DNA from: an uncultured Gammaproteobacteria bacterium
Lineage (GTDB): Bacteria; Patescibacteriota; Microgenomatia; Daviesbacterales; UBA10151
DNA length: 16,580 nt
Direction of reading: 5' to 3'
Assembly (NCBI GenBank): GCA_964522265.1
Contig: CAZFVS010000003.1
Coordinates: 855 to 17,434 of the forward strand
The position numbers were made by a program, and so were the translations under genes. The notes below the pieces were generated by a model. The model had not been told where the DNA came from and did not search any database. It saw only the letters and a list, made by a program, of their open reading frames with translations. Shown in pieces: positions 6,806 to 11,881 of the stretch (positions are counted from its first letter, which is position 1; the number at the start of each line of letters is the position of its first letter).

Positions 6806-7822
6806 ATGACACTCACAGAAACAGCCTCTTTTACCAAAAAACTGCTTGTATTTTCTGTGGTTTTCCTGGTAATTTTAATTATTGGAGGTTTCGGTTACCA
6901 AGCCTTCCGCAAATACCAGCAATCCAAAATCCCGCCAATTGAGGAAAAACCTGATGTCAAATGGGGCATCTTACCCAAACCCAACCTACCGGTTTCCAGT
7001 GTTGCTTCCTCAAGCTACTCTTATACTCTTGATACAACCACAGGCTCTGTACCTAAGGATCTTCCTAAACTTATCAAGGTTTATTTTATCCCTAAGCTTG
7101 GCACAACTCTGCTTTCTGCTGACAAAGCTAAGGATTTAGCCTCAAGTTTTAAATTCACAAATGGCCCTCAAATGCTTTCTGAAACAAAATACCGCTTCTC
7201 TGATGATACCGGAGGAGAATTTACTGTTGATCTAAGCAGCGGGAACTTTAAATATAAACGGGTTTTAGCAACAGACAGCGCCTCGCTGCAGGATGAATTT
7301 ATTGCCGATGACTCTAATATAAGCACTGACTTTAAGAATTTTTTAAATGGCAAAGATCTGCTAAAAGATCAGTTGCGGGATGGGCGCAGTAAAGTTTTGT
7401 ATGACCGGTTTCCACAAAAAGAAAGCCTTACCGCCACGATATCTCTTTGGCAGGAAGATATCGACAACCTTGAGATCATCACAGATAAATTTACCACCGG
7501 GCTTATCAAGGGGGTCGTGACCAAATTTAAAGATGAGCTGCAAAAATTTTTGGAATTGGATTTTACTTTTTGGCAAATTGACAAAAGTAATTTTTCAACT
7601 TACCCGATAAAAACCGCTGATGTTGCTTTCGACGAACTTCAAACAGGCCAATCTGCCGTAGTACTTGAACCTTTAAAACCCCAGGTTTCTATCACTAAAG
7701 TATCCCTTGCCTACCTTTTGTCAGAGAATTATCCGCAATACCTGCAACCTGTTTATCTGTTTGAAGGCGACCATTTTACTGCCATGCTGCCGGCCATAAT
7801 TGATACATACCTGCAAAAATGA
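6806..7822 (+). CDS. Uncharacterised membrane-anchored (single N-terminal TM) protein, probably extracytoplasmic
   Basis: The 338-aa ORF has an ATG start and a hydrophobic helix LLVFSVVFLVILIIGGFGY near the N-terminus. The rest is hydrophilic with no motif I can assign. It is convergent with the DD-carboxypeptidase gene, with only 3 nt between the stop codons. Confidence 0.75.
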   Translation: MTLTETASFTKKLLVFSVVFLVILIIGGFGYQAFRKYQQSKIPPIEEKPDVKWGILPKPNLPVSSVASSSYSYTLDTTTGSVPKDLPKLIKVYFIPKLGTTLLSADKAKDLASSFKFTNGPQMLSETKYRFSDDTGGEFTVDLSSGNFKYKRVLATDSASLQDEFIADDSNISTDFKNFLNGKDLLKDQLRDGRSKVLYDRFPQKESLTATISLWQEDIDNLEIITDKFTTGLIKGVVTKFKDELQKFLELDFTFWQIDKSNFSTYPIKTADVAFDELQTGQSAVVLEPLKPQVSITKVSLAYLLSENYPQYLQPVYLFEGDHFTAMLPAIIDTYLQK

Positions 7823-7825
7823 AAC

Positions 7826-8794
7826 TTACTGCACTCTCCATTCAAAATTGCTATACACCCAGTCAATCAGTCTCTTTGTTTCGCCGAACCGATCCTGGCT
7901 GGACAACACAACTGTCAATATTTTGTGCCCATTTTTTTCAGCAAGCCCTACAAAATTTTCTCCTGCCTTTTCGGTAAACCCGGTTTTAATCCCTAAAATA
8001 CCTTCTTCTGATAAAAGCTTGTTCAAATTTTTAAGGTGGTGCACTTTTGTCTTATCAAAAGCCAGGATTGAAGTCTCTTTGGTAGCCACTATTTTGGACA
8101 GGTACGGATCGAGTGCCGCAGCTTTGGAAAATACAGCCAGATCATACGCAGAGGAATAGTGCTTTTCGGAGTCAAAACCGGCCGGGTTTTGGAAATGGCT
8201 GTCTGCCAAATTCAGTTGTTTGACCTTTTCATTCATTTTATCCACAAAAACATCTATCCCCCCGGGGTAATTTAATGCAATTGTATAAGCCGCATCATTA
8301 CCCGAATTCAAAAGCATTCCGTAAAGCAGGCTTCTGAAAGTGAGTTTCTCGTCTTTGCTTACACCCATACTCGACCCGCCGACAATCGCCTGTACAGGAA
8401 CTGTCAGGATCTCTCCCGGCTTAAAATATTCTTGAGCGATCAGTGCCGATACAATTTTGGTGGTAGAGGCCGGGGGCAGGCGGTTGTGGATATTTTTTCC
8501 AAAAAGAACCTGTCCTGAATCTAAATCCTGGGCTAAAACTGCCTGGGCACTAAATTCAGGCTGTGGAATATTTTTATTTTCAATCGAAATTGTCGGTGTT
8601 ACCGCAACTTCAACCTGCTGTTTGGAAAATACAGGCTTTACCTGTGGTTGGTTGCCTAAAAAAGCCACCTTGCTTTCTGCCAGTTCAACAATTTTTGGAG
8701 TCTCAATTAAAAATAATGCAGCTGCTGCAAAAAACAGAATGCTGGAAAAGATAAAGCTATACTGCTTGAAACGACTTGCAAGTTTAGCGGGCAT
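7826..8794 (-). CDS. D-alanyl-D-alanine carboxypeptidase (serine peptidase S11, low-MW PBP) with an N-terminal membrane anchor
   Basis: All three PBP motifs are present in order: SxxK (ASTTK), SxN (NSGND) and KTG (GIKTGFT). The N-terminal helix is FIFSSILFFAAAALFLI. The start overlaps the aspS 3' end by 11 nt. Confidence 0.88.
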   Translation of the reverse strand: MPAKLASRFKQYSFIFSSILFFAAAALFLIETPKIVELAESKVAFLGNQPQVKPVFSKQQVEVAVTPTISIENKNIPQPEFSAQAVLAQDLDSGQVLFGKNIHNRLPPASTTKIVSALIAQEYFKPGEILTVPVQAIVGGSSMGVSKDEKLTFRSLLYGMLLNSGNDAAYTIALNYPGGIDVFVDKMNEKVKQLNLADSHFQNPAGFDSEKHYSSAYDLAVFSKAAALDPYLSKIVATKETSILAFDKTKVHHLKNLNKLLSEEGILGIKTGFTEKAGENFVGLAEKNGHKILTVVLSSQDRFGETKRLIDWVYSNFEWRVQ

Positions 8795-10184
8795 GAAATA
8801 GAGTGATTCCTAACTCTTTTAATTGCTCATCGCTTGCCTGGGATGGTGCATCCATCACTGCTGTCTGACCCGAAGAAGTAGCCGGGAAAGCCATAACTTC
8901 CCTAACGCTTGGTTCACCTAAAAGTGCCATTAGAAACCTATCGATCCCGGGTGCAATTCCTCCATGCGGCGGCACTCCAAATTTAAAAGCTGTTAACATA
9001 TGGTTGAATTGTTTTTTTTGTTCCTGCGAAAAACCGATCAGCTCAAAGATTTTTTCCTGAATTTCAGCTTGATGAATTCTAATACTTCCTCCTCCAACTT
9101 CAAAACCATTTAAAACTAAATCATGCTGTAATCCTCTGACTTCCCCTGGATCAGAATCTAAAAGCGGAATATCATCCGGGTGTGGAGCTGTAAACATATG
9201 ACGTGAGGGTGCAAATTTAGCACTACCGGTACCATGGTAAAAATCCTCTTTAGATTGCTGTGTAAACAGGGGAAAATCTATTGTCCAAGCGAAAGCCAAT
9301 TCGTCCGAATTATTTTTGTCTTTTCTCAAATCAGGTTTATCAGTGCCATATTTTGCCATAGCTTCTTTGTGGGCGATTCTGGGCCAGGAGGATTGCATGA
9401 TATGTTTTTCCGGAAATAGTTTACCCACCATCTCTGTAAACATCTTTTCAATAATCTGCAAAATATCTTCCTGGGTGACAAAAGACATCTCTAAATCCAA
9501 TTGGGTAAATTCACCATAAGCTCTATCTGCTCTGGGATCCTCATCTCTAAAACATTTGGCGATCTGAAAATATCTTTCAAAACCCGCTATCATTAACATT
9601 TGTTTATATTGCTGAGGAGATTGAGGTAAGGCATAGAATTTACCTTTTTGCAGCCTGGAAGGGACTATAAAATCCCTGGCTCCTTCAGGCGTAGTTTTTG
9701 TCAGTATTGGTGTTTCAATCTCCACAAAGTCCTCTCCGATTAAATAATTTCTAATAAAACCGGTCATCCGAGAACGTATCTGTAAATTTCGAGCCATCCT
9801 GGGTCGGCGTAAATCTAAATAGCGGTATTTTAAGCGGATTGATTCTTCAATATCATAGCCATCAGTATCTATGGGTAAAGGCAGGGTTTGAGCTTTGGAT
9901 ACAACAGTTAAATGCTTAATCTGCATCTCAATTGTGCCGGTTGAGAGCTTAACATTAATCATTTTGTCCCCTCTTTTAACTATCCCCCCAATAACCTCCA
10001 CTACATCTTCTACACCCAAATCCCCAATTTGTCCACCAGCAGCAACAGCTTGAATAATTCCAGTTCTATCTCTAATATCCAAAAATACAATTTTCCCATG
10101 GTCACGCCTCACAGCCACCCAACCATTGATTTTTACCTCTTCTCCTATTTTATTGTTGCAATCTAAAACCAGTGTTCTCTGCAT
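8784..10184 (-). CDS. aspS: Aspartyl-tRNA synthetase, bacterial-type catalytic core without the GAD insertion domain
   Basis: The 466-aa ORF has an N-terminal OB fold, a class II motif 2 (FRDEDPRADRAYGEFTQLDLEMSF), GGGSIRIH, and motif 3 (GGIAPGIDRFLMAL). Confidence 0.93.
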   Translation of the reverse strand: MQRTLVLDCNNKIGEEVKINGWVAVRRDHGKIVFLDIRDRTGIIQAVAAGGQIGDLGVEDVVEVIGGIVKRGDKMINVKLSTGTIEMQIKHLTVVSKAQTLPLPIDTDGYDIEESIRLKYRYLDLRRPRMARNLQIRSRMTGFIRNYLIGEDFVEIETPILTKTTPEGARDFIVPSRLQKGKFYALPQSPQQYKQMLMIAGFERYFQIAKCFRDEDPRADRAYGEFTQLDLEMSFVTQEDILQIIEKMFTEMVGKLFPEKHIMQSSWPRIAHKEAMAKYGTDKPDLRKDKNNSDELAFAWTIDFPLFTQQSKEDFYHGTGSAKFAPSRHMFTAPHPDDIPLLDSDPGEVRGLQHDLVLNGFEVGGGSIRIHQAEIQEKIFELIGFSQEQKKQFNHMLTAFKFGVPPHGGIAPGIDRFLMALLGEPSVREVMAFPATSSGQTAVMDAPSQASDEQLKELGITLFHAR

Positions 10185-10224
10185 AAATTTTTTACTTAAT
10201 AGATATTAACAGCTTCAATCCTCC

Positions 10225-10253
10225 TTGACAAGGTTTTAAAAAAACCTTATAAT
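10225..10253 (+). promoter_or_regulatory. Perfect consensus sigma70-type promoter: TTGACA, a 17-nt spacer, then TATAAT
   Basis: TTGACA lies at 10225-10230 and TATAAT at 10248-10253, with a spacer of exactly 17 nt. The nearest downstream ATG (10263) is 9 nt after the -10 box. Confidence 0.65.
10230..10248. promoter_or_regulatory. 19-bp palindrome AAGGTTTT-AAA-AAAACCTT filling the promoter spacer (candidate operator)
   Basis: The 8-bp arms are perfectly complementary around a 3-nt centre. The palindrome spans from the last base of the -35 to the first base of the -10. It lies upstream of the predicted TSS, so it is a DNA element rather than an RNA element. Confidence 0.35.
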
Positions 10254-10262
10254 ATTTTTAAT

Positions 10263-10367
10263 ATGCCGCGCACCCAAACCTTGGATCTGAAAAATTTAGG
10301 TATTTTGATTACCAATCTTCTGTTGGTGCTCTTTATGGGAGCATTCTGGGGAGGTCTTTTTAGGTAA
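10263..10367 (+). CDS. 34-codon Leu-rich hydrophobic leader ORF (candidate leader peptide or small membrane peptide)
   Basis: Translation gives MPRTQTLDLKNLGILITNLLLVLFMGAFWGGLFR with a TAA stop, including 9 Leu. There is no SD, and the ATG lies 2-3 nt from the predicted TSS. The last codons contain attenuator segment 1 (GGGAGGTCT, 10349-10357). Confidence 0.35.
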   Translation: MPRTQTLDLKNLGILITNLLLVLFMGAFWGGLFR

Positions 10368-10391
10368 AGCTGCCTAAAAACCGCAGGAATT

Positions 10392-10420
10392 AGACCTCCC
10401 GAATAAAGGGAGGTTTTTTT
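10392..10420 (+). terminator. Intrinsic-terminator-like hairpin plus T7 run, immediately upstream of rel. The 3' arm is the rel SD.
   Basis: ACCTCCC (10394-10400) pairs with GGGAGGT (10408-10414) across the loop GAATAAA. The stem is extendable by G.U and A-U pairs and is followed by T-run 10414-10420. The 5' arm can alternatively pair 9/9 with 10349-10357. Confidence 0.55.
10408..10413 (+). promoter_or_regulatory. Shine-Dalgarno GGGAGG, 7 nt upstream of the rel ATG
   Basis: This is the only strong SD I could find in front of any gene in the window. It is sequestered in the hairpin described above. Confidence 0.6.
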
Positions 10421-11881
10421 ATGTTGAACAGTTTTAAAAACCCATTAATTGTCAGGGCCATTCGTTTTAATGTGCTAAGTTTGGCTGGCAAAAAACGTTA
10501 TTCAGGTGAGCAGTTTAGCGACCATTGTTTAAAAGTCGCCCAAATTCTGGAAAAATTCAGAGTCACCGATCCCATAACCTTAGCTGTTGCTGTTTTGCAT
10601 CACACCCTTTCTGATAGTGCTGCAACACTTTCAGATATTGAGAAAGAGTTTGGTGGTGAAATTGCTTCAATGTTAAAAACCCTTGATAGACTGAGGGTTA
10701 TTAAACTTTCAGAAACTTCCCAGGAAGAGTTCGCTGAAAATCTCAGGATGATGTTTCTAACTCTTGCTCAAGATTTGCGGATTGTTTTGATAAAACTTGC
10801 AGACATTTACGATAACCTTCAGACCTTAAAGTATCTACCCGAGAAAAAAAGGATAGAAGTATCAAGAGAAACTCTTGAAATTTTCGCCCCCCTCTGCGGG
10901 CGTTTAGGGATAGGGGAGATGAAAGGACAGATGCAGGATTTGGCATTTGAATATCTTTATCCTGATGATTACAAAACAACAAAAAGCATATTTAAAACAA
11001 ACTTGAGAAAACTTGACCGGACTCTGCTTAAAATCAAAGCTCAGCTAAAACTTGCTCTGGAAAAAGAAAAAATAGATTATAAACTTGAAAGCCGCACCAA
11101 ACATATCTATTCTCTTTTTACAAAATTTAAACGTCCGGAGATTAATTTTGATACCGGCAAAATTTATGACTTAATAGCTTTTAGGATAATCGTTCAAAAT
11201 ACCGAAGATTGTTATAAAGTTTTGGGATTAATCCATAAATTATGGCGGCCAATGCCGGATAGTGTCCGGGACTTTATTGCACGCCCTAAATTGAATGGAT
11301 ACCAATCTATCCATACCACAGTCTTGGGCCCTGACGACAAACCTTTTGAGATCCAAATCAGGACAAGTGAAATGCATGAAGAGGCTGAATTTGGAGTTGC
11401 AGCACATTGGCACTACGCAGAATCAAAAAGTTCCGGGACATCTGACAACCAGGCGGAAAAAGGCTTCAGTGTACCGGATGATAAGTTAAAATGGGTAAGC
11501 AGTCTGAGCCAGTGGCAGCAGGAGATCGCAGACAATGAGCACAGCTTTCTTTCAGATGAGGAATTTTTAAAATCTATCAAAACGGACTTTTTTGGGGAGA
11601 GGATCTATGTATTCACACCAAAAGGAGATGTAATAGATCTGCCTTTTGGAGCAACACCAATTGATTTCGCATACAAGCTTCATACTAAATTAGGGGATTT
11701 AGCTCTTGGTGCAAAAATTAACGGCAAACTTGCTTCACTCAACACCTCATTAAAAAACAGTAATGTTTGTGAGATTATTATATCCAAGGATAAAAATAAA
11801 AAACCAAGCCGGGACTGGTTAAAATTTGTAGTAACATCTGCTGCGAGAAGACAGATCAAAAAAGCACATCTTTTACTTTAA
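10421..11881 (+). CDS. rel: RelA/SpoT homologue ((p)ppGpp synthetase) with HD-like, SYNTH and TGS domains only. It is C-terminally short and its HD motif is degenerate.
   Basis: Synthetase motifs are present: SRTKHIYSLFTKFKR, DLIAFRIIV, NGYQSIHTTV and EIQIRTSEMHEEAEFGVAAHWHY. The TGS domain reads RIYVFTPKGDVIDLPFGATPIDFAYKLHT..GAKINGK. The HD region reads LHHTLSDS where Rel enzymes have LHDvvEDT. The protein ends about 25 aa after the TGS domain. Confidence 0.9.
   Translation: MLNSFKNPLIVRAIRFNVLSLAGKKRYSGEQFSDHCLKVAQILEKFRVTDPITLAVAVLHHTLSDSAATLSDIEKEFGGEIASMLKTLDRLRVIKLSETSQEEFAENLRMMFLTLAQDLRIVLIKLADIYDNLQTLKYLPEKKRIEVSRETLEIFAPLCGRLGIGEMKGQMQDLAFEYLYPDDYKTTKSIFKTNLRKLDRTLLKIKAQLKLALEKEKIDYKLESRTKHIYSLFTKFKRPEINFDTGKIYDLIAFRIIVQNTEDCYKVLGLIHKLWRPMPDSVRDFIARPKLNGYQSIHTTVLGPDDKPFEIQIRTSEMHEEAEFGVAAHWHYAESKSSGTSDNQAEKGFSVPDDKLKWVSSLSQWQQEIADNEHSFLSDEEFLKSIKTDFFGERIYVFTPKGDVIDLPFGATPIDFAYKLHTKLGDLALGAKINGKLASLNTSLKNSNVCEIIISKDKNKKPSRDWLKFVVTSAARRQIKKAHLLL

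Follow-up and report, generated by a model that had tools for sequence, protein, structure and literature searches.

A rel gene in the genome of an uncultured Daviesbacteria-like bacterium (CPR) follows directly upon a promoter, a short open reading frame and a terminator-like hairpin, and the question this raises is whether the leader region is an attenuator read by the translating ribosome and, if so, whether it arose for the control of rel. The region lies in a stretch of 16,580 nucleotides, the whole of which was analyzed and is called here the window; a first-pass annotation of the window had inferred trp/leu-style translation-coupled attenuation of rel. With moderate confidence, and on in silico grounds only, our analysis favors transcription attenuation by a ribosome on a leader peptide whose ORF is near-leaderless, in a unit that belongs to a family of paralogous cassettes in Daviesbacteria. 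The mode of control inferred by the first-pass annotation is supported in silico, with no experimental data, and the picture around it is changed: the cassette is generic and pre-dates its association with rel.

Promoter, leader frame and RNA segments upstream of rel

The anatomy of the region was computed, and all of its features are on the + strand. The cassette promoter consists of a -35 hexamer, TTGACA (10225..10230), and a -10 hexamer, TATAAT (10248..10253), at a spacing of 17 nt, and is the sole 12/12 promoter match in the 16.6-kb window. The motif CTTGACAAG at the -35 is conserved among the cassettes of the same type (type A, see below), and its complement, TTGTCA, is the -35 of the divergent AspRS promoter. 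The leader ORF (10263..10367) starts at an ATG (10263) located 9 nt past the -10 without a Shine-Dalgarno (SD) sequence, and runs for 34 codons to a TAA stop (10365-10367); its translation, MPRTQTLDLKNLGILITNLLLVLFMGAFWGGLFR, contains nine Leu, two Ile and one Val. Transcription is predicted to start near A10260/A10261, a position which is inferred, and this would leave a 5' UTR of 2-3 nt and a near-leaderless message. Translation of the leader is likewise inferred, with indirect support only: the spacing of the ATG from the -10, and the synonymous changes that distinguish the window from L001, the one other locus with the cassette ahead of rel, where a two-base TTG to CTA change and a TTG to TTA change keep Leu at both positions.

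Within and beyond the leader frame, four segments can be arranged in mutually exclusive pairings. The first, seg0 (ATCTTCT, 10315..10321), is a CU-rich partner of seg1 found in the RNAalifold consensus of seven type A copies, and is predicted by the model to be an anti-antiterminator equivalent to segment 1 of trp; the helix between seg0 and seg1 encloses an inner hairpin, P1 (GGTGCTCTT/GGGAGCATT, 10325..10345). Seg1 (GGGAGGTCT, 10349..10357) lies within the last leader codons and can pair either with seg0 or with seg2, the latter pairing forming the antiterminator; a mutant version of it, GGGAGCTCT, has been named for compensatory testing. The leader stop follows seg1 by 7 nt and falls at the start of the loop of a middle hairpin (TTTTTAGG-TAAAGCTG-CCTAAAAA, 10358..10380), which is conserved in 7/7 type A copies, with one compensatory change from G-C to A-U in L167. 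Seg2 (AGACCTCCC, 10392..10400) is both the seg1 partner and the 5' arm of the terminator, and seg3 (GGGAGGTTT, 10408..10416) serves as the 3' terminator arm and also as the SD of rel, with GGAGG placed 7 nt before the rel ATG. A run of seven T (10414..10420) completes the intrinsic terminator.

Seg1 and seg2 pair at 9/9 positions, and exact occurrences of the 9-mer on both strands of the window are restricted to these two; seg3 is one of just three matches to it in the window with a single mismatch. The hairpin AGACCTCCC-GAATAAA-GGGAGGTTT with its U-run (9-bp stem, 7-nt loop, U7; hairpin energy -14.4 kcal/mol) is the top-ranked terminator-like site of the window. No SD of the GGAGG type was found within 30 nt of the listed start of the other ten large ORFs of the window, nor was there a + strand promoter match between 10253 and 10421 that could provide an alternative promoter for rel. 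Folding of the leader region is better than that of shuffled versions (z = -2.44). A search of the window against Rfam, at the gathering threshold and again at E of 10 or less, identified no family; the best sub-threshold match, Phe_leader (RF01859; 20.4 bits against a cut-off of 55, E = 0.43), is driven mostly by the terminator. A riboswitch, a T-box and the known leader families (Leu_leader, Trp_leader and others) were rejected, there being no match to an Rfam aptamer or family.

The features that the first-pass annotation had read from these letters were all upheld at the coordinates it gave, with minor corrections: the perfect TTGACA-17-TATAAT promoter followed 9 nt later by an SD-less 34-codon ORF with nine Leu, at the coordinates given above; the 9/9 complementarity of 10349-10357 with 10392-10400 and the alternative pairing of the latter with GGGAGGT; the double role of GGGAGG as terminator arm and rel SD, the only strong SD in the window; and the absence of a promoter between the hairpin and rel. 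A run of seven T after GGGAGGT needs a minor correction, in that there are seven U in total (10414-10420) and the T of GGGAGGT is among them. The proposed three-segment attenuator held in part, as seg0 brings the segments to four and there is a further hairpin at 10358-10380.

A family of paralogous cassettes

At least 13 paralogous cassettes were found in Daviesbacteria genomes, from about eight contigs. They share a scaffold with a near-consensus promoter, an SD-less ATG that opens a frame of 20-34 codons, a seg0 rich in C and U, and GGGAGG as seg1, with the stop just past seg1. Seg2 (CCTCCC), seg3 (GGGAGG) and a U-run come next, and in most cases they are followed by an ATG. The leader ATG is found 6-11 nt after the -10, without an SD, in at least 12 of the 13 (the transcription start sites are predicted, not mapped). 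This architecture was also sought without regard to sequence, over both strands of 2.08 Mb from about 170 loci. The criteria were a promoter, an ATG lying 4-12 nt downstream of the -10, a reading frame 12-45 codons long, and a terminator no more than 90 nt past the stop. The scan gave 12 hits, all of them cassettes of this family and all in Daviesbacteria; the cassette pattern had no match in viral contigs. Genome contigs searched with Rel yielded a single close locus, L001, and a metagenome search with AspRS for the intergenic region recovered three close relatives only, none of which had a usable upstream region.

The leaders fall into three classes with mutually exclusive compositions: Leu/Ile/Val-rich (type A, including that of the window), Phe/Tyr-rich (type B) and Met-rich (type C). 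Leu accounts for 8-12 of 30-33 residues in six of the seven type A copies, Phe/Tyr/Trp for 5-6 of 19-25 residues in type B, and Met for 4/19 and 4/21 residues in type C (p about 5e-4). A type B leader with the run FYFWFIF precedes a gene for DAHP synthase (TIGR01361; 287 bits, cut-off 268), and both Met-rich leaders (n = 2) precede SAM_HAT_C, SAM-hydrolase-like, genes. For these sister cassettes, the link between the amino acid and the downstream gene, although inferred from sequence, is clear; for the cassette of the window, the link of rel to amino-acid starvation is plausible, though indirect. The other type A cassettes are found upstream of unrelated orphan small ORFs, for which no connection to Leu, Ile or Val is apparent. 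Types B and C have shorter antiterminators, of 6-9 bp. The family is apparently undescribed, and its sequences suggest a set of interchangeable amino-acid-sensing units.

Conservation was then computed across the cassettes. Relatives keep the promoter, the leader reading frame, the position of the stop and all of the segments, and both frame and stop position survive indels. In L083, GGGAGG lies in a different codon phase and the C-terminus is frameshifted, yet the same TAA in the hairpin loop ends the frame; selection therefore appears to act on the end point of translation rather than on the sequence of the peptide.

The computed pairing of seg1 with seg2 is also maintained, with 89.7% of positions paired across cassettes and four of the nine pairs changed on both sides (TCT/AGA, CC/GG and TG/CA are examples). 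Its covariation score of 0.242, against 0.153 for shuffled data, was reached in 1 of 500 shuffles, and controls in which the segments were slid gave at most 0.073; a permutation test of complementarity within versus across cassettes gave p about 0.001-0.002. In L167, a C in seg2 pairs with a G of seg1 and cannot pair with seg3. The terminator helix, seg2:seg3, is 97.4% paired across cassettes. The first-pass annotation had stated that its proposal would fail if related genomes showed no conservation or covariation of the segments, or if the leader frame were broken in relatives; both checks were run, and the segments are conserved, seg1:seg2 covaries and the frame is kept.

Some caution is needed with these figures. 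In half of the rows of whole-leader MAFFT alignments seg2 is displaced by one column, and pairs were for this reason counted on gapless seg1|seg2|seg3 blocks; because the core motifs serve as anchors for these blocks, the alignment is biased toward structure. RNAalifold on the unfitted MAFFT alignment recovered the terminator as well as seg0:seg1 and the inner hairpin. The sample is small (13 cassettes) and many of its members are related by descent, so that the shuffle statistics imply more independence than there is. In addition, the cores of all four segments resemble SD or anti-SD sequences (CCTCC/GGAGG), so that some cross-pairing is automatic.

This last point is part of a rival explanation, which we consider unlikely: that the leader ORF simply encodes a small peptide, hydrophobic or membrane-bound, under a strong promoter and terminator of its own, that rel landed behind it after an inversion and is expressed by leakage through the terminator, and that the seg1:seg2 complementarity is a by-product of two hairpins built on one SD/anti-SD motif. 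In its favor, the type A peptide resembles a transmembrane segment and ends in GG(L/A)FR in 5/7 copies, type A copies stand upstream of unrelated orphan genes, the cassette is fixed in position beside AspRS, and the CCTCC/GGAGG cores are common to all stems. Against it, the leader peptide has no match in Pfam or NCBIfam, and phmmer found no family among 1.84 billion representatives, the sole hit being a 3413-aa protein with no aligned stretch, which is likely to be spurious. Further, the C-terminus of L083 is frameshifted with its stop kept, the sister cassettes encode Met-rich or Phe/Tyr-rich peptides that are not hydrophobic and are matched to the downstream enzymes, and the complementarity reaches past the common core and covaries.

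A second rival takes the unit of about 160 nt from promoter to terminator to be mainly an sRNA gene, or a riboregulator that binds a ligand or protein, working independently of translation; CCUCCC or GGGAGG might pair in trans with SD regions or with the 3' end of 16S. A strong promoter and a strong terminator do surround a structured RNA with conserved hairpins and the z-score reported above, and in other bacteria the terminated RNA of an attenuator, rnTrpL, acts in trans (PMC6614838). Set against this are the failure of any Rfam family to reach threshold, with Phe_leader at 20.4 of 55 bits the best, and the preservation, despite very different sequences, of an ATG near the -10 and of an open frame ending just past seg1. 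A non-coding RNA would have no need of a conserved ATG and frame, which weakens this reading to the point that we regard it as very unlikely.

Ribosome position and choice of structure

The attenuator model requires that the position of a ribosome decide between the alternative structures, and the effect of a masked footprint on folding was computed on transcripts cut before seg3. On these truncated RNAs the probability of seg1:seg2 is 0.8-1.0, and it falls to 0 with the A-site within about the last nine codons or with the ribosome at the stop; in either case the minimum free energy (MFE) structure keeps the terminator. Seg1 remains free when the stall occurs anywhere in the first ~25 codons. 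The first-pass annotation had argued that a ribosome finishing the leader would occlude segment 1 and favor the 2:3 pairing, and that one stalled upstream would free segment 1; the footprint folding reproduces both effects, the second on truncated RNA. The class-specific cluster of residues ends at the occlusion boundary in 13/13 cassettes. In the window, codons 15-24 read L-I-T-N-L-L-L-V-L-F, and the run ends where a stalled ribosome would begin to cover seg1.

Folding of the full-length leader gives a different picture. Comparison of the two conformers, a check suggested by the first-pass annotation, shows the terminator conformer of the window to be the more stable at full length (-50.3 versus -45.8 kcal/mol). 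Stalling a ribosome at the Leu codons does not change the MFE of the full-length leader, which is still the terminator conformer, so that the attenuator model has to rely on the kinetics of folding during transcription. An equilibrium comparison of forced conformers for each ribosome position at full length was uninformative, with the terminator mostly favored, and was set aside for truncated folding. Seg1:seg2 also forms on truncated RNA in the absence of any ribosome; what seg0 contributes, and what becomes of a leader that is not translated, are unresolved.

From these observations the following sequence of events can be proposed. Transcription would begin about 2-3 nt before the leader AUG, and seg0:seg1 and the inner hairpin would form as polymerase advances, the U-tract that follows being a possible pause site. 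A ribosome keeping pace as far as the TAA at 10365 would place its footprint on seg1, allowing seg2:seg3 and U7 to stop transcription at ~10420, with the rel SD buried in any transcript that escapes termination. A ribosome lagging or stalled in the first ~25 codons would leave seg1 free for the 9-bp seg1:seg2 helix (-22.8 kcal/mol for the region from seg1 to seg2); as this helix would form before seg3 is made, polymerase would read into rel with seg3 free as SD. Slow translation would thus raise Rel, through read-through together with a free SD. The trigger would probably be a shortage of Leu or branched-chain aminoacyl-tRNA. The efficiency of termination, the amino acid sensed, the response to aminoacyl-tRNA and the physiological outcome are all inferences from sequence alone; to our knowledge, neither leaderless initiation nor intrinsic termination has been shown in CPR bacteria. 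Specificity for Leu is a plausible reading, but it is confounded by the general hydrophobicity of the peptide, as the enrichment could reflect a membrane peptide.

A variant of the main model, which remains possible, accepts a genuine attenuator but one not specific to any amino acid, sensing general translation capacity or the coupling of transcription to translation, for instance the availability of ribosomes or a slow-down of any origin. On this view type A would be rich in Leu, Ile and Val only incidentally, a CU-rich seg0 and U-rich sequence forcing codons for Leu, Phe and Ile; CTN and TTN codons follow automatically from the CU-rich seg0. A stall at any of the first ~25 codons suffices to free seg1, the targets of type A have no branched-chain amino-acid link, and the Leu enrichment in the window leader is only moderate (9/33, p = 0.008). 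The evidence against is that the enrichments of the three classes are mutually exclusive, with the enriched residues clustered just upstream of the occlusion boundary, that the TTG to CTA and TTG to TTA differences between the window and L001 keep Leu, and that the leader of L155 has 12/33 Leu, including LLGLLLL. The amino-acid-specific attenuator can also be put more boldly, as modular ribosome-sensing cassettes of CPR bacteria, diversified from one SD/anti-SD-based scaffold, which read Leu/Ile/Val, Phe/Tyr or Met ahead of accessory genes, a Leu-type cassette having captured rel in one lineage so that stalling induces Rel; we consider this wider reading possible but less likely than not.

Inferred capture of rel and relation to known attenuators

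The rel gene (10421..11881) encodes a truncated long RSH protein of 486 aa with HD_4, RelA_SpoT and TGS; it is without the C-terminal ribosome-sensing domains, and its hydrolase motifs are degenerate. An LHH..SD motif raises the possibility that it has synthetase activity only. The start codon of rel (10421) corresponds to the AUG that is conserved after the U-run among the cassettes. Synteny, which was computed, shows that in most relatives rel is located behind recJ and the cassette drives orphan small ORFs, while the cassette keeps a fixed position beside AspRS. Only the window and one other MAG, that of L001, have the cassette ahead of rel, and rel is inverted in both. In L001, a 57-codon ORF with its own SD intervenes between cassette and rel, and only in the window is seg3 the SD of rel. 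We infer from synteny that the cassette is older than its link with rel and that an inversion put rel behind it in the window and L001; the comparison of the two further suggests that a later deletion in the window joined rel directly to the SD and AUG of the cassette itself, making the capture recent. The possibility that the attenuator evolved for rel was rejected, as the closest rel orthologues (67-71% identity) are without the cassette.

The attenuators of enterobacteria, trpL, leuL, ilvL (ilvGMEDA), pheL and hisL, have a short leader ORF with a cluster of codons for the amino acid sensed. The cassettes share with them four segments whose pairings (anti-antiterminator, antiterminator, terminator) are mutually exclusive, a stop codon positioned for a ribosome completing the leader to block the antiterminator, and an intrinsic terminator immediately ahead of the first gene under control; among the peptides, type A resembles that of ilvL (hydrophobic, Leu/Ile/Val-rich, about 32 aa) and type B that of pheL, with its F..FTF runs. 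Unlike the enterobacterial systems, the cassettes have leader ORFs without an SD that start 2-5 nt from the predicted transcription start, stems all built from SD/anti-SD-like GGGAGG/CCTCCC, a terminator 3' arm that is the SD of the next ORF with the AUG directly after the U-run, and a leader stop that lies beyond segment "2" (seg1), not in the interval that separates segments 1 and 2. The target in the window is rel and not a biosynthetic operon, the host is a CPR bacterium, and there is no similarity at the level of sequence or covariance model.

Leaderless leader-peptide attenuators are established elsewhere (PMC4007540; 10.1101/834739), and we compared those of Deinococcus deserti, mycobacteria (the Cys "ribulon") and ilvBNC of Corynebacterium glutamicum (PMC4007540; 10.1101/834739; PMC11857589). 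The likeness lies in a leader enriched in one amino acid, in control of downstream genes by ribosome stalling (for the cassettes, as proposed), and in several independent loci per genome on one principle. The mycobacterial Cys sORFs exert translational control by unmasking a downstream ribosome-binding site, whereas the cassettes combine a terminator and U-run with masking of the SD. The cassettes differ also in being clear paralogues, with one scaffold and swapped sensor peptides, in their targets (rel, a SAM-hydrolase-like gene and orphan small ORFs) and in their phylum, Patescibacteria/CPR. Dual-acting platforms with an SD in the 3' arm of a terminator exist in some riboswitches and attenuators; in the window, too, one hairpin would both terminate transcription and sequester the downstream SD, but unlike in riboswitches the sensor would be the translating ribosome and not a ligand aptamer, of which Rfam detected none.

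In the full-text literature searched, we found no attenuators or leader peptides described as regulators in CPR/Patescibacteria, and no leader-peptide attenuator before rel or relA, the latter in agreement with the first-pass annotation. Gene regulation in CPR/Patescibacteria is almost unexplored. If the wider reading given above is true, leader-peptide attenuators would be described here for the first time in the Candidate Phyla Radiation, among them a Met-sensing leader controlling the release of Met from SAM. The proposed model would add a Met-reading leader, ahead of a SAM-hydrolase-like gene, to the known set, and would also provide a sequence signature for small sensor ORFs missed by gene callers in CPR genomes. 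If that model holds, bacteria with minimal genomes would be reusing one of the cheapest known sensors, the translating ribosome, in the form of a cassette, to which one lineage would have rewired its stringent-response enzyme. In the wider reading this would constitute a previously unknown route from amino-acid starvation to (p)ppGpp, by way of the transcription and translation of Rel; the model would offer a testable hypothesis for how a Rel truncated after TGS may be coupled to amino-acid supply.

The cassette upstream of rel

The cassette in front of rel is likely to function as a classical-type leader-peptide attenuator; the case is computational, and the transcription start, leader translation, termination efficiency and amino-acid specificity are inferred. 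The sole 12/12 promoter match in a scan of the window (TTGACA at 10225-10230, a 17-nt spacer and TATAAT at 10248-10253, plus strand like the whole cassette) is followed by a leader ORF without a Shine-Dalgarno sequence (SD), MPRTQTLDLKNLGILITNLLLVLFMGAFWGGLFR, of 34 codons with 9 Leu, from ATG at 10263 to a stop at 10365-10367. Segment 1 (seg1, GGGAGGTCT, 10349-10357) and seg2 (AGACCTCCC, 10392-10400) are exact complements, and the 9-mer has just two exact occurrences on both strands of the 16.6-kb window; seg3 (GGGAGGTTT, 10408-10416) is a one-mismatch copy of it. Among terminator-like sites in the window, the one made up of the seg2/seg3 hairpin and U7 ranks highest, and directly behind it comes the rel ATG at 10421. 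The first-pass annotation had listed this promoter, leader, three-segment hairpin system and SD-bearing last arm, and all are present at these positions. Its statement that no promoter separates hairpin from rel also held, the window scan giving no plus-strand match between the leader promoter and rel, as did the uniqueness of the rel SD for the other ten large ORFs, whose listed starts all lack a GGAGG-type SD within 30 nt. Its list of segments was incomplete: folding adds the CU-rich seg0 (ATCTTCT, 10315-10321), whose helix with seg1 encloses an inner hairpin (10325-10345), and a stop-codon hairpin (10358-10380) whose loop opens with the leader stop. Shuffled versions of the leader fold less strongly than the leader itself (z = -2.44).

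The terminator hairpin has an energy of -14.4 kcal/mol, the region from seg1 to seg2 including the middle hairpin -22.8 kcal/mol, and seg0:seg1 with the inner hairpin -15.7 kcal/mol. The full-length terminator (-50.3 kcal/mol) and antiterminator (-45.8 kcal/mol) conformers are close, and equilibrium favours the terminator, also when a stalled ribosome occupies the Leu codons; the attenuation decision must therefore be kinetic, as in classical attenuators, and seg1 is able to pair with seg2 before seg3 has been transcribed. Since truncated RNA prefers seg1:seg2 with no ribosome present, an untranslated leader may either read through or be trapped by the earlier-formed seg0:seg1.

A family of cassettes with different leader peptides

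Pattern scans of the retrieved loci identified at least 13 cassettes in about 8 Daviesbacteria contigs, the number being bounded by the extent of locus retrieval. All have a TTGACA-type promoter; an SD-less ATG 6-11 nt after the -10; a 20-34-codon ORF running through a CU-rich seg0 and a GGGAGG seg1 to a stop 4-21 nt further on; and, after a spacer, a seg2 consisting of a purine-rich extension plus CCTCC(C/T), a 4-7-nt loop, GGGAGG as seg3 and U6-8. In L083, a relative's locus with rel in the ancestral orientation, the cassette is still at the same AspRS-adjoining spot, in the order promoter, 31-codon ORF, seg0, seg1 (GGGAGGCC), stop-codon hairpin, seg2 (GGCCTCCC), seg3 and U7, after which an ATG begins an orphan 55-aa ORF. 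A sequence-agnostic scan of all ~170 retrieved loci (2.08 Mb, both strands) for a promoter with an ATG 4-12 nt downstream of its -10, followed by a 12-45-codon ORF and, <=90 nt past the stop, a terminator of any kind, returned 12 matches, every one a known cassette from Daviesbacteria; the architecture is thus not a chance product of AT-rich DNA.

An ATG or GTG lies <=2 nt from the U-run in 9/13 cassettes. It serves either as the direct start of the regulated gene (window rel; the 55-aa ORF of L083) or as the start of a 4-8-codon mini-ORF that runs up to, or ends beside, the following gene's SD and ATG; in the relatives' loci these encode MFEF (L001 2790-2805), MFERRC (L152 7321-7295), MAKERRC (L154 6602-6575), MQKGGD (L082 4591-4570) and MVKI (L167 9602-9588), each followed by a stop. 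The mini-ORFs might link target translation to seg3 exposure through termination-reinitiation coupling.

The leader peptides form three classes with mutually exclusive residue enrichments. Type A (7 copies, 31-34 aa, Leu/Ile/Val-rich) includes the window copy, MSKIAVLNTKRLEALLGLLLLSTLLGAYLGGLFR and MAFRETIKSNSIIINLLIVVVLLIGVTLGGAF; Leu accounts for 8-12 of 30-33 residues in 6/7 copies and for 9/33 in the window leader (p = 0.008). Type B (4 copies, 20-26 aa, Phe/Tyr-rich; e.g., MQVQKVYFYFSFTFQKEGGL, MICQPTFYFWFIFTSSKGRLVDVLRM) has Phe/Tyr/Trp at 5-6 of 19-25 positions (p = 0.004-0.02), and type C (2 copies, 20-22 aa, Met-rich; MTKMSKLFMMQMASWEEVYS, MKFLNLMSMMLQMQTSKGGRSL) has Met at 4/19 and 4/21 (p ~5e-4). 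The aromatic-rich leader of L154, MICQPTFYFWFIFTSSKGRLVDVLRM, with its FYFWFIF run (6830-6969, plus strand), lies upstream of a DAHP synthase gene (6997-7782; TIGR01361, 287 bits vs a cut-off of 268), a logic like pheL or aroG control, but in a CPR genome. A type A cassette on the opposite strand adjoins it back to back.

Both Met-rich leaders (MTKMSKLFMMQMASWEEVYS and MKFLNLMSMMLQMQTSKGGRSL; L082 5648-5538 and L152 8416-8299; minus strand) are directly upstream of genes for orthologous, SAM hydrolase-like proteins, 63% identical to each other, with a SAM hydroxide adenosyltransferase C-terminal domain (SAM_HAT_C) above the Pfam cut-off; the ATG of that gene is 5-6 nt beyond the U-run and seg3 is its sole SD (n=2). 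Enzymes of the SAM hydroxide adenosyltransferase family split SAM into adenosine and methionine. Type C could be a Met-sensing leader-peptide attenuator governing Met release from SAM. The type A targets besides rel are unrelated orphan small ORFs, and it is here that the case for amino-acid-specific sensing by the window copy is weakest; a non-specific translation-coupling sensor is a possible and serious variant of the main model.

In Daviesbacteria, rel and AspRS are separated by a hypervariable island: orphan small ORFs on a single strand, with one to three cassettes among them (L152 6425-9244; L167 6462-10570; L083 3937-4530; L155 6430-6894). Some genomes lack it entirely (L157, 87 nt). 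At a contig end adjoining AspRS (L086 1-112, minus strand), TTGACA-17-TATAAT is followed by ATGTCAAAGGCT..., like the start of the type A leader of L155 (MSK...); this is likely a further type A copy truncated by the contig end.

Reading frame, covariation and ribosome position

The first-pass annotation had proposed leader-frame conservation and segment covariation in relatives as checks, and both were run. The frame is open in every cassette copy. In L083 the GGGAGG core is in a different codon phase (R-E-A vs G-G-L) and a compensating 1-nt difference downstream returns the frame to the same hairpin-loop TAA, which suggests selection on the end of translation rather than on the peptide C-terminus. 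Synonymous changes that retain Leu (TTG to CTA and TTG to TTA) distinguish the window leader from that of L001. Strict retention of the 5'-proximal ATG and frame argues against a translation-independent sRNA or riboregulator, which we consider unlikely; a second, trans-acting role of the terminated RNA or peptide is not excluded.

Outside the GGGAGG/CCTCCC core, the seg1/seg2 extensions covary (TCT/AGA in the window, L001, L152 and L155; CC/GG in L083; TG/CA in L167), and the C of L167 seg2 pairs with a G in seg1 but is unable to pair with the U in seg3. Complementarity is greater within than across cassettes (permutation, p ~0.001-0.002). In a gapless block alignment of 13 copies, seg1:seg2 is 89.7% paired, with 4/9 pairs changed on both sides and a covariation score of 0.242 vs 0.153 when shuffled, the observed score being reached in 1/500 shuffles (slid controls <=0.073); the terminator helix is 97.4% paired across cassettes. 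RNAalifold on an unfitted MAFFT alignment of type A copies independently predicted seg0:seg1, the inner hairpin and the terminator. The sample behind the covariation is small, many copies share a common origin, and the core motifs served as anchors for the block alignment.

When transcripts cut just before seg3 were folded, P(seg1:seg2) was 0.8-1.0 in most cassettes and fell to 0 when the A-site was on the stop codon or in roughly the final 9 codons before it. In 13/13 cassettes this ribosome-occlusion boundary is exactly where the cluster of class-specific residues ends. For type A, a small-membrane-peptide gene with its own terminator is possible, but does not account for a stop position that tolerates frameshifts, for sister cassettes that are not hydrophobic, or for the covariation.

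History of the rel association and proposed mechanism

The window flanks encode GluRS, a 338-aa ORF without a Pfam match, D-Ala-D-Ala carboxypeptidase and AspRS (divergent from the leader promoter), with recJ (convergent) and then the CCA-adding enzyme downstream of rel. Rel (486 aa; HD_4, RelA_SpoT, TGS) has its closest homologues, at 57-72% identity, in Candidatus Daviesbacteria MAGs (Microgenomates, CPR). The protein (10421-11881, plus strand) ends after TGS, without the ZFD/RRM-ACT region, and its hydrolase motifs are degenerate (LHHTLSDS vs LHDVVEDT in B. subtilis Rel), the HH being present also in L001 and L083; we infer from these sequences, in the absence of activity data, that it is likely a synthetase-only enzyme.

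Nearly all retrieved Daviesbacteria loci read CCA(-) recJ(+) rel(+), variable small ORFs(-), AspRS(+), carboxypeptidase(+), 337-aa ORF(-), GluRS(+), with rel directly abutting recJ; two close relatives have rel behind a different gene. Among retrieved loci, only the window and L001 (Rel 72% identical) have rel inverted, downstream of the AspRS-adjoining element. Behind the L001 terminator come a 4-codon mini-ORF and then a 57-codon ORF with its own SD, whose stop overlaps the rel ATG (ATGA); the 5' end of window rel (ATGTTGAACAGTTTTAAAA) aligns with the mini-ORF region, and beyond it with L001 rel from ~codon 8. We infer an inversion common to both and a later window deletion that fused rel to the cassette SD and AUG. 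The cassette thus predates its association with rel, and the trp/leu-style attenuation proposed in the first-pass annotation is supported in silico, but for a cassette older than the rel link.

The convergent rel and recJ frames overlap by 26 nt (11856-11881), which fits a recent inversion of rel relative to the ancestral recJ-rel operon. Window AspRS (8784-10184, minus strand) is bacterial-type (NF001750, 594 bits) and, being matched in two stretches, lacks the insertion domain; the relatives' syntenic AspRS is archaeal-type non-discriminating (NF003483). Despite this difference, the window and L001 proteins are highly alike over their N-terminal ~50 residues, and in-place replacement or a chimera is conceivable. 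Within 10203-10253, the divergent AspRS (minus strand; TTGTCA, 17-nt spacer, TAATAT) and cassette promoters use one near-palindromic -35 region, CTTGACAAG, and the motif TTGACAAG is kept in type A copies adjoining AspRS. Apart from rel, the window's large ORFs (11 starts) have no GGAGG-like SD within 30 nt of the listed start, and the AspRS UTR is apparently ~11 nt; genes behind cassettes in relatives, unlike these ORFs, are preceded by strong AGGAGGTG SDs. Core genes here may normally be initiated without an SD.

The window cassette meets every in-silico-testable structural criterion of the classical trp/leu/ilv/phe attenuators and belongs to no Rfam leader family. Leaderless sensor ORFs are known in Deinococcus deserti (PMC4007540), mycobacteria (10.1101/834739) and Corynebacterium (PMC11857589). 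Full-text searches, of incomplete coverage and hence absence of evidence only, turned up no publication describing regulation by attenuators or leader peptides in CPR/Patescibacteria, nor one with a leader-peptide attenuator ahead of rel/relA. New relative to known systems are the phylum (CPR), the paralogous cassette family with swapped sensor peptides on one SD/anti-SD scaffold, the fusion of the terminator 3' arm with an SD and immediate AUG, the Met-reading leader (Met sensing being inferred) and rel as target.

In the proposed mechanism, transcription would start 2-3 nt upstream of the AUG, and the near-leaderless 5' end would be loaded with a 70S ribosome. A U-tract (GGGAGGTCTTTTT) after the seg0:seg1 hairpin may pause polymerase until the ribosome arrives. 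A ribosome keeping pace would reach the TAA and cover seg1, and the terminator would form, ending transcription at ~10420 and burying the SD in any escaped transcript. A ribosome delayed in codons 1-25, which include the run L-I-T-N-L-L-L-V-L-F (codons 15-24), would leave seg1 free to capture seg2; polymerase would then read into rel, with seg3 exposed as its SD. The net effect would be that slow translation, probably through a shortage of Leu or branched-chain aminoacyl-tRNA, yields more Rel.
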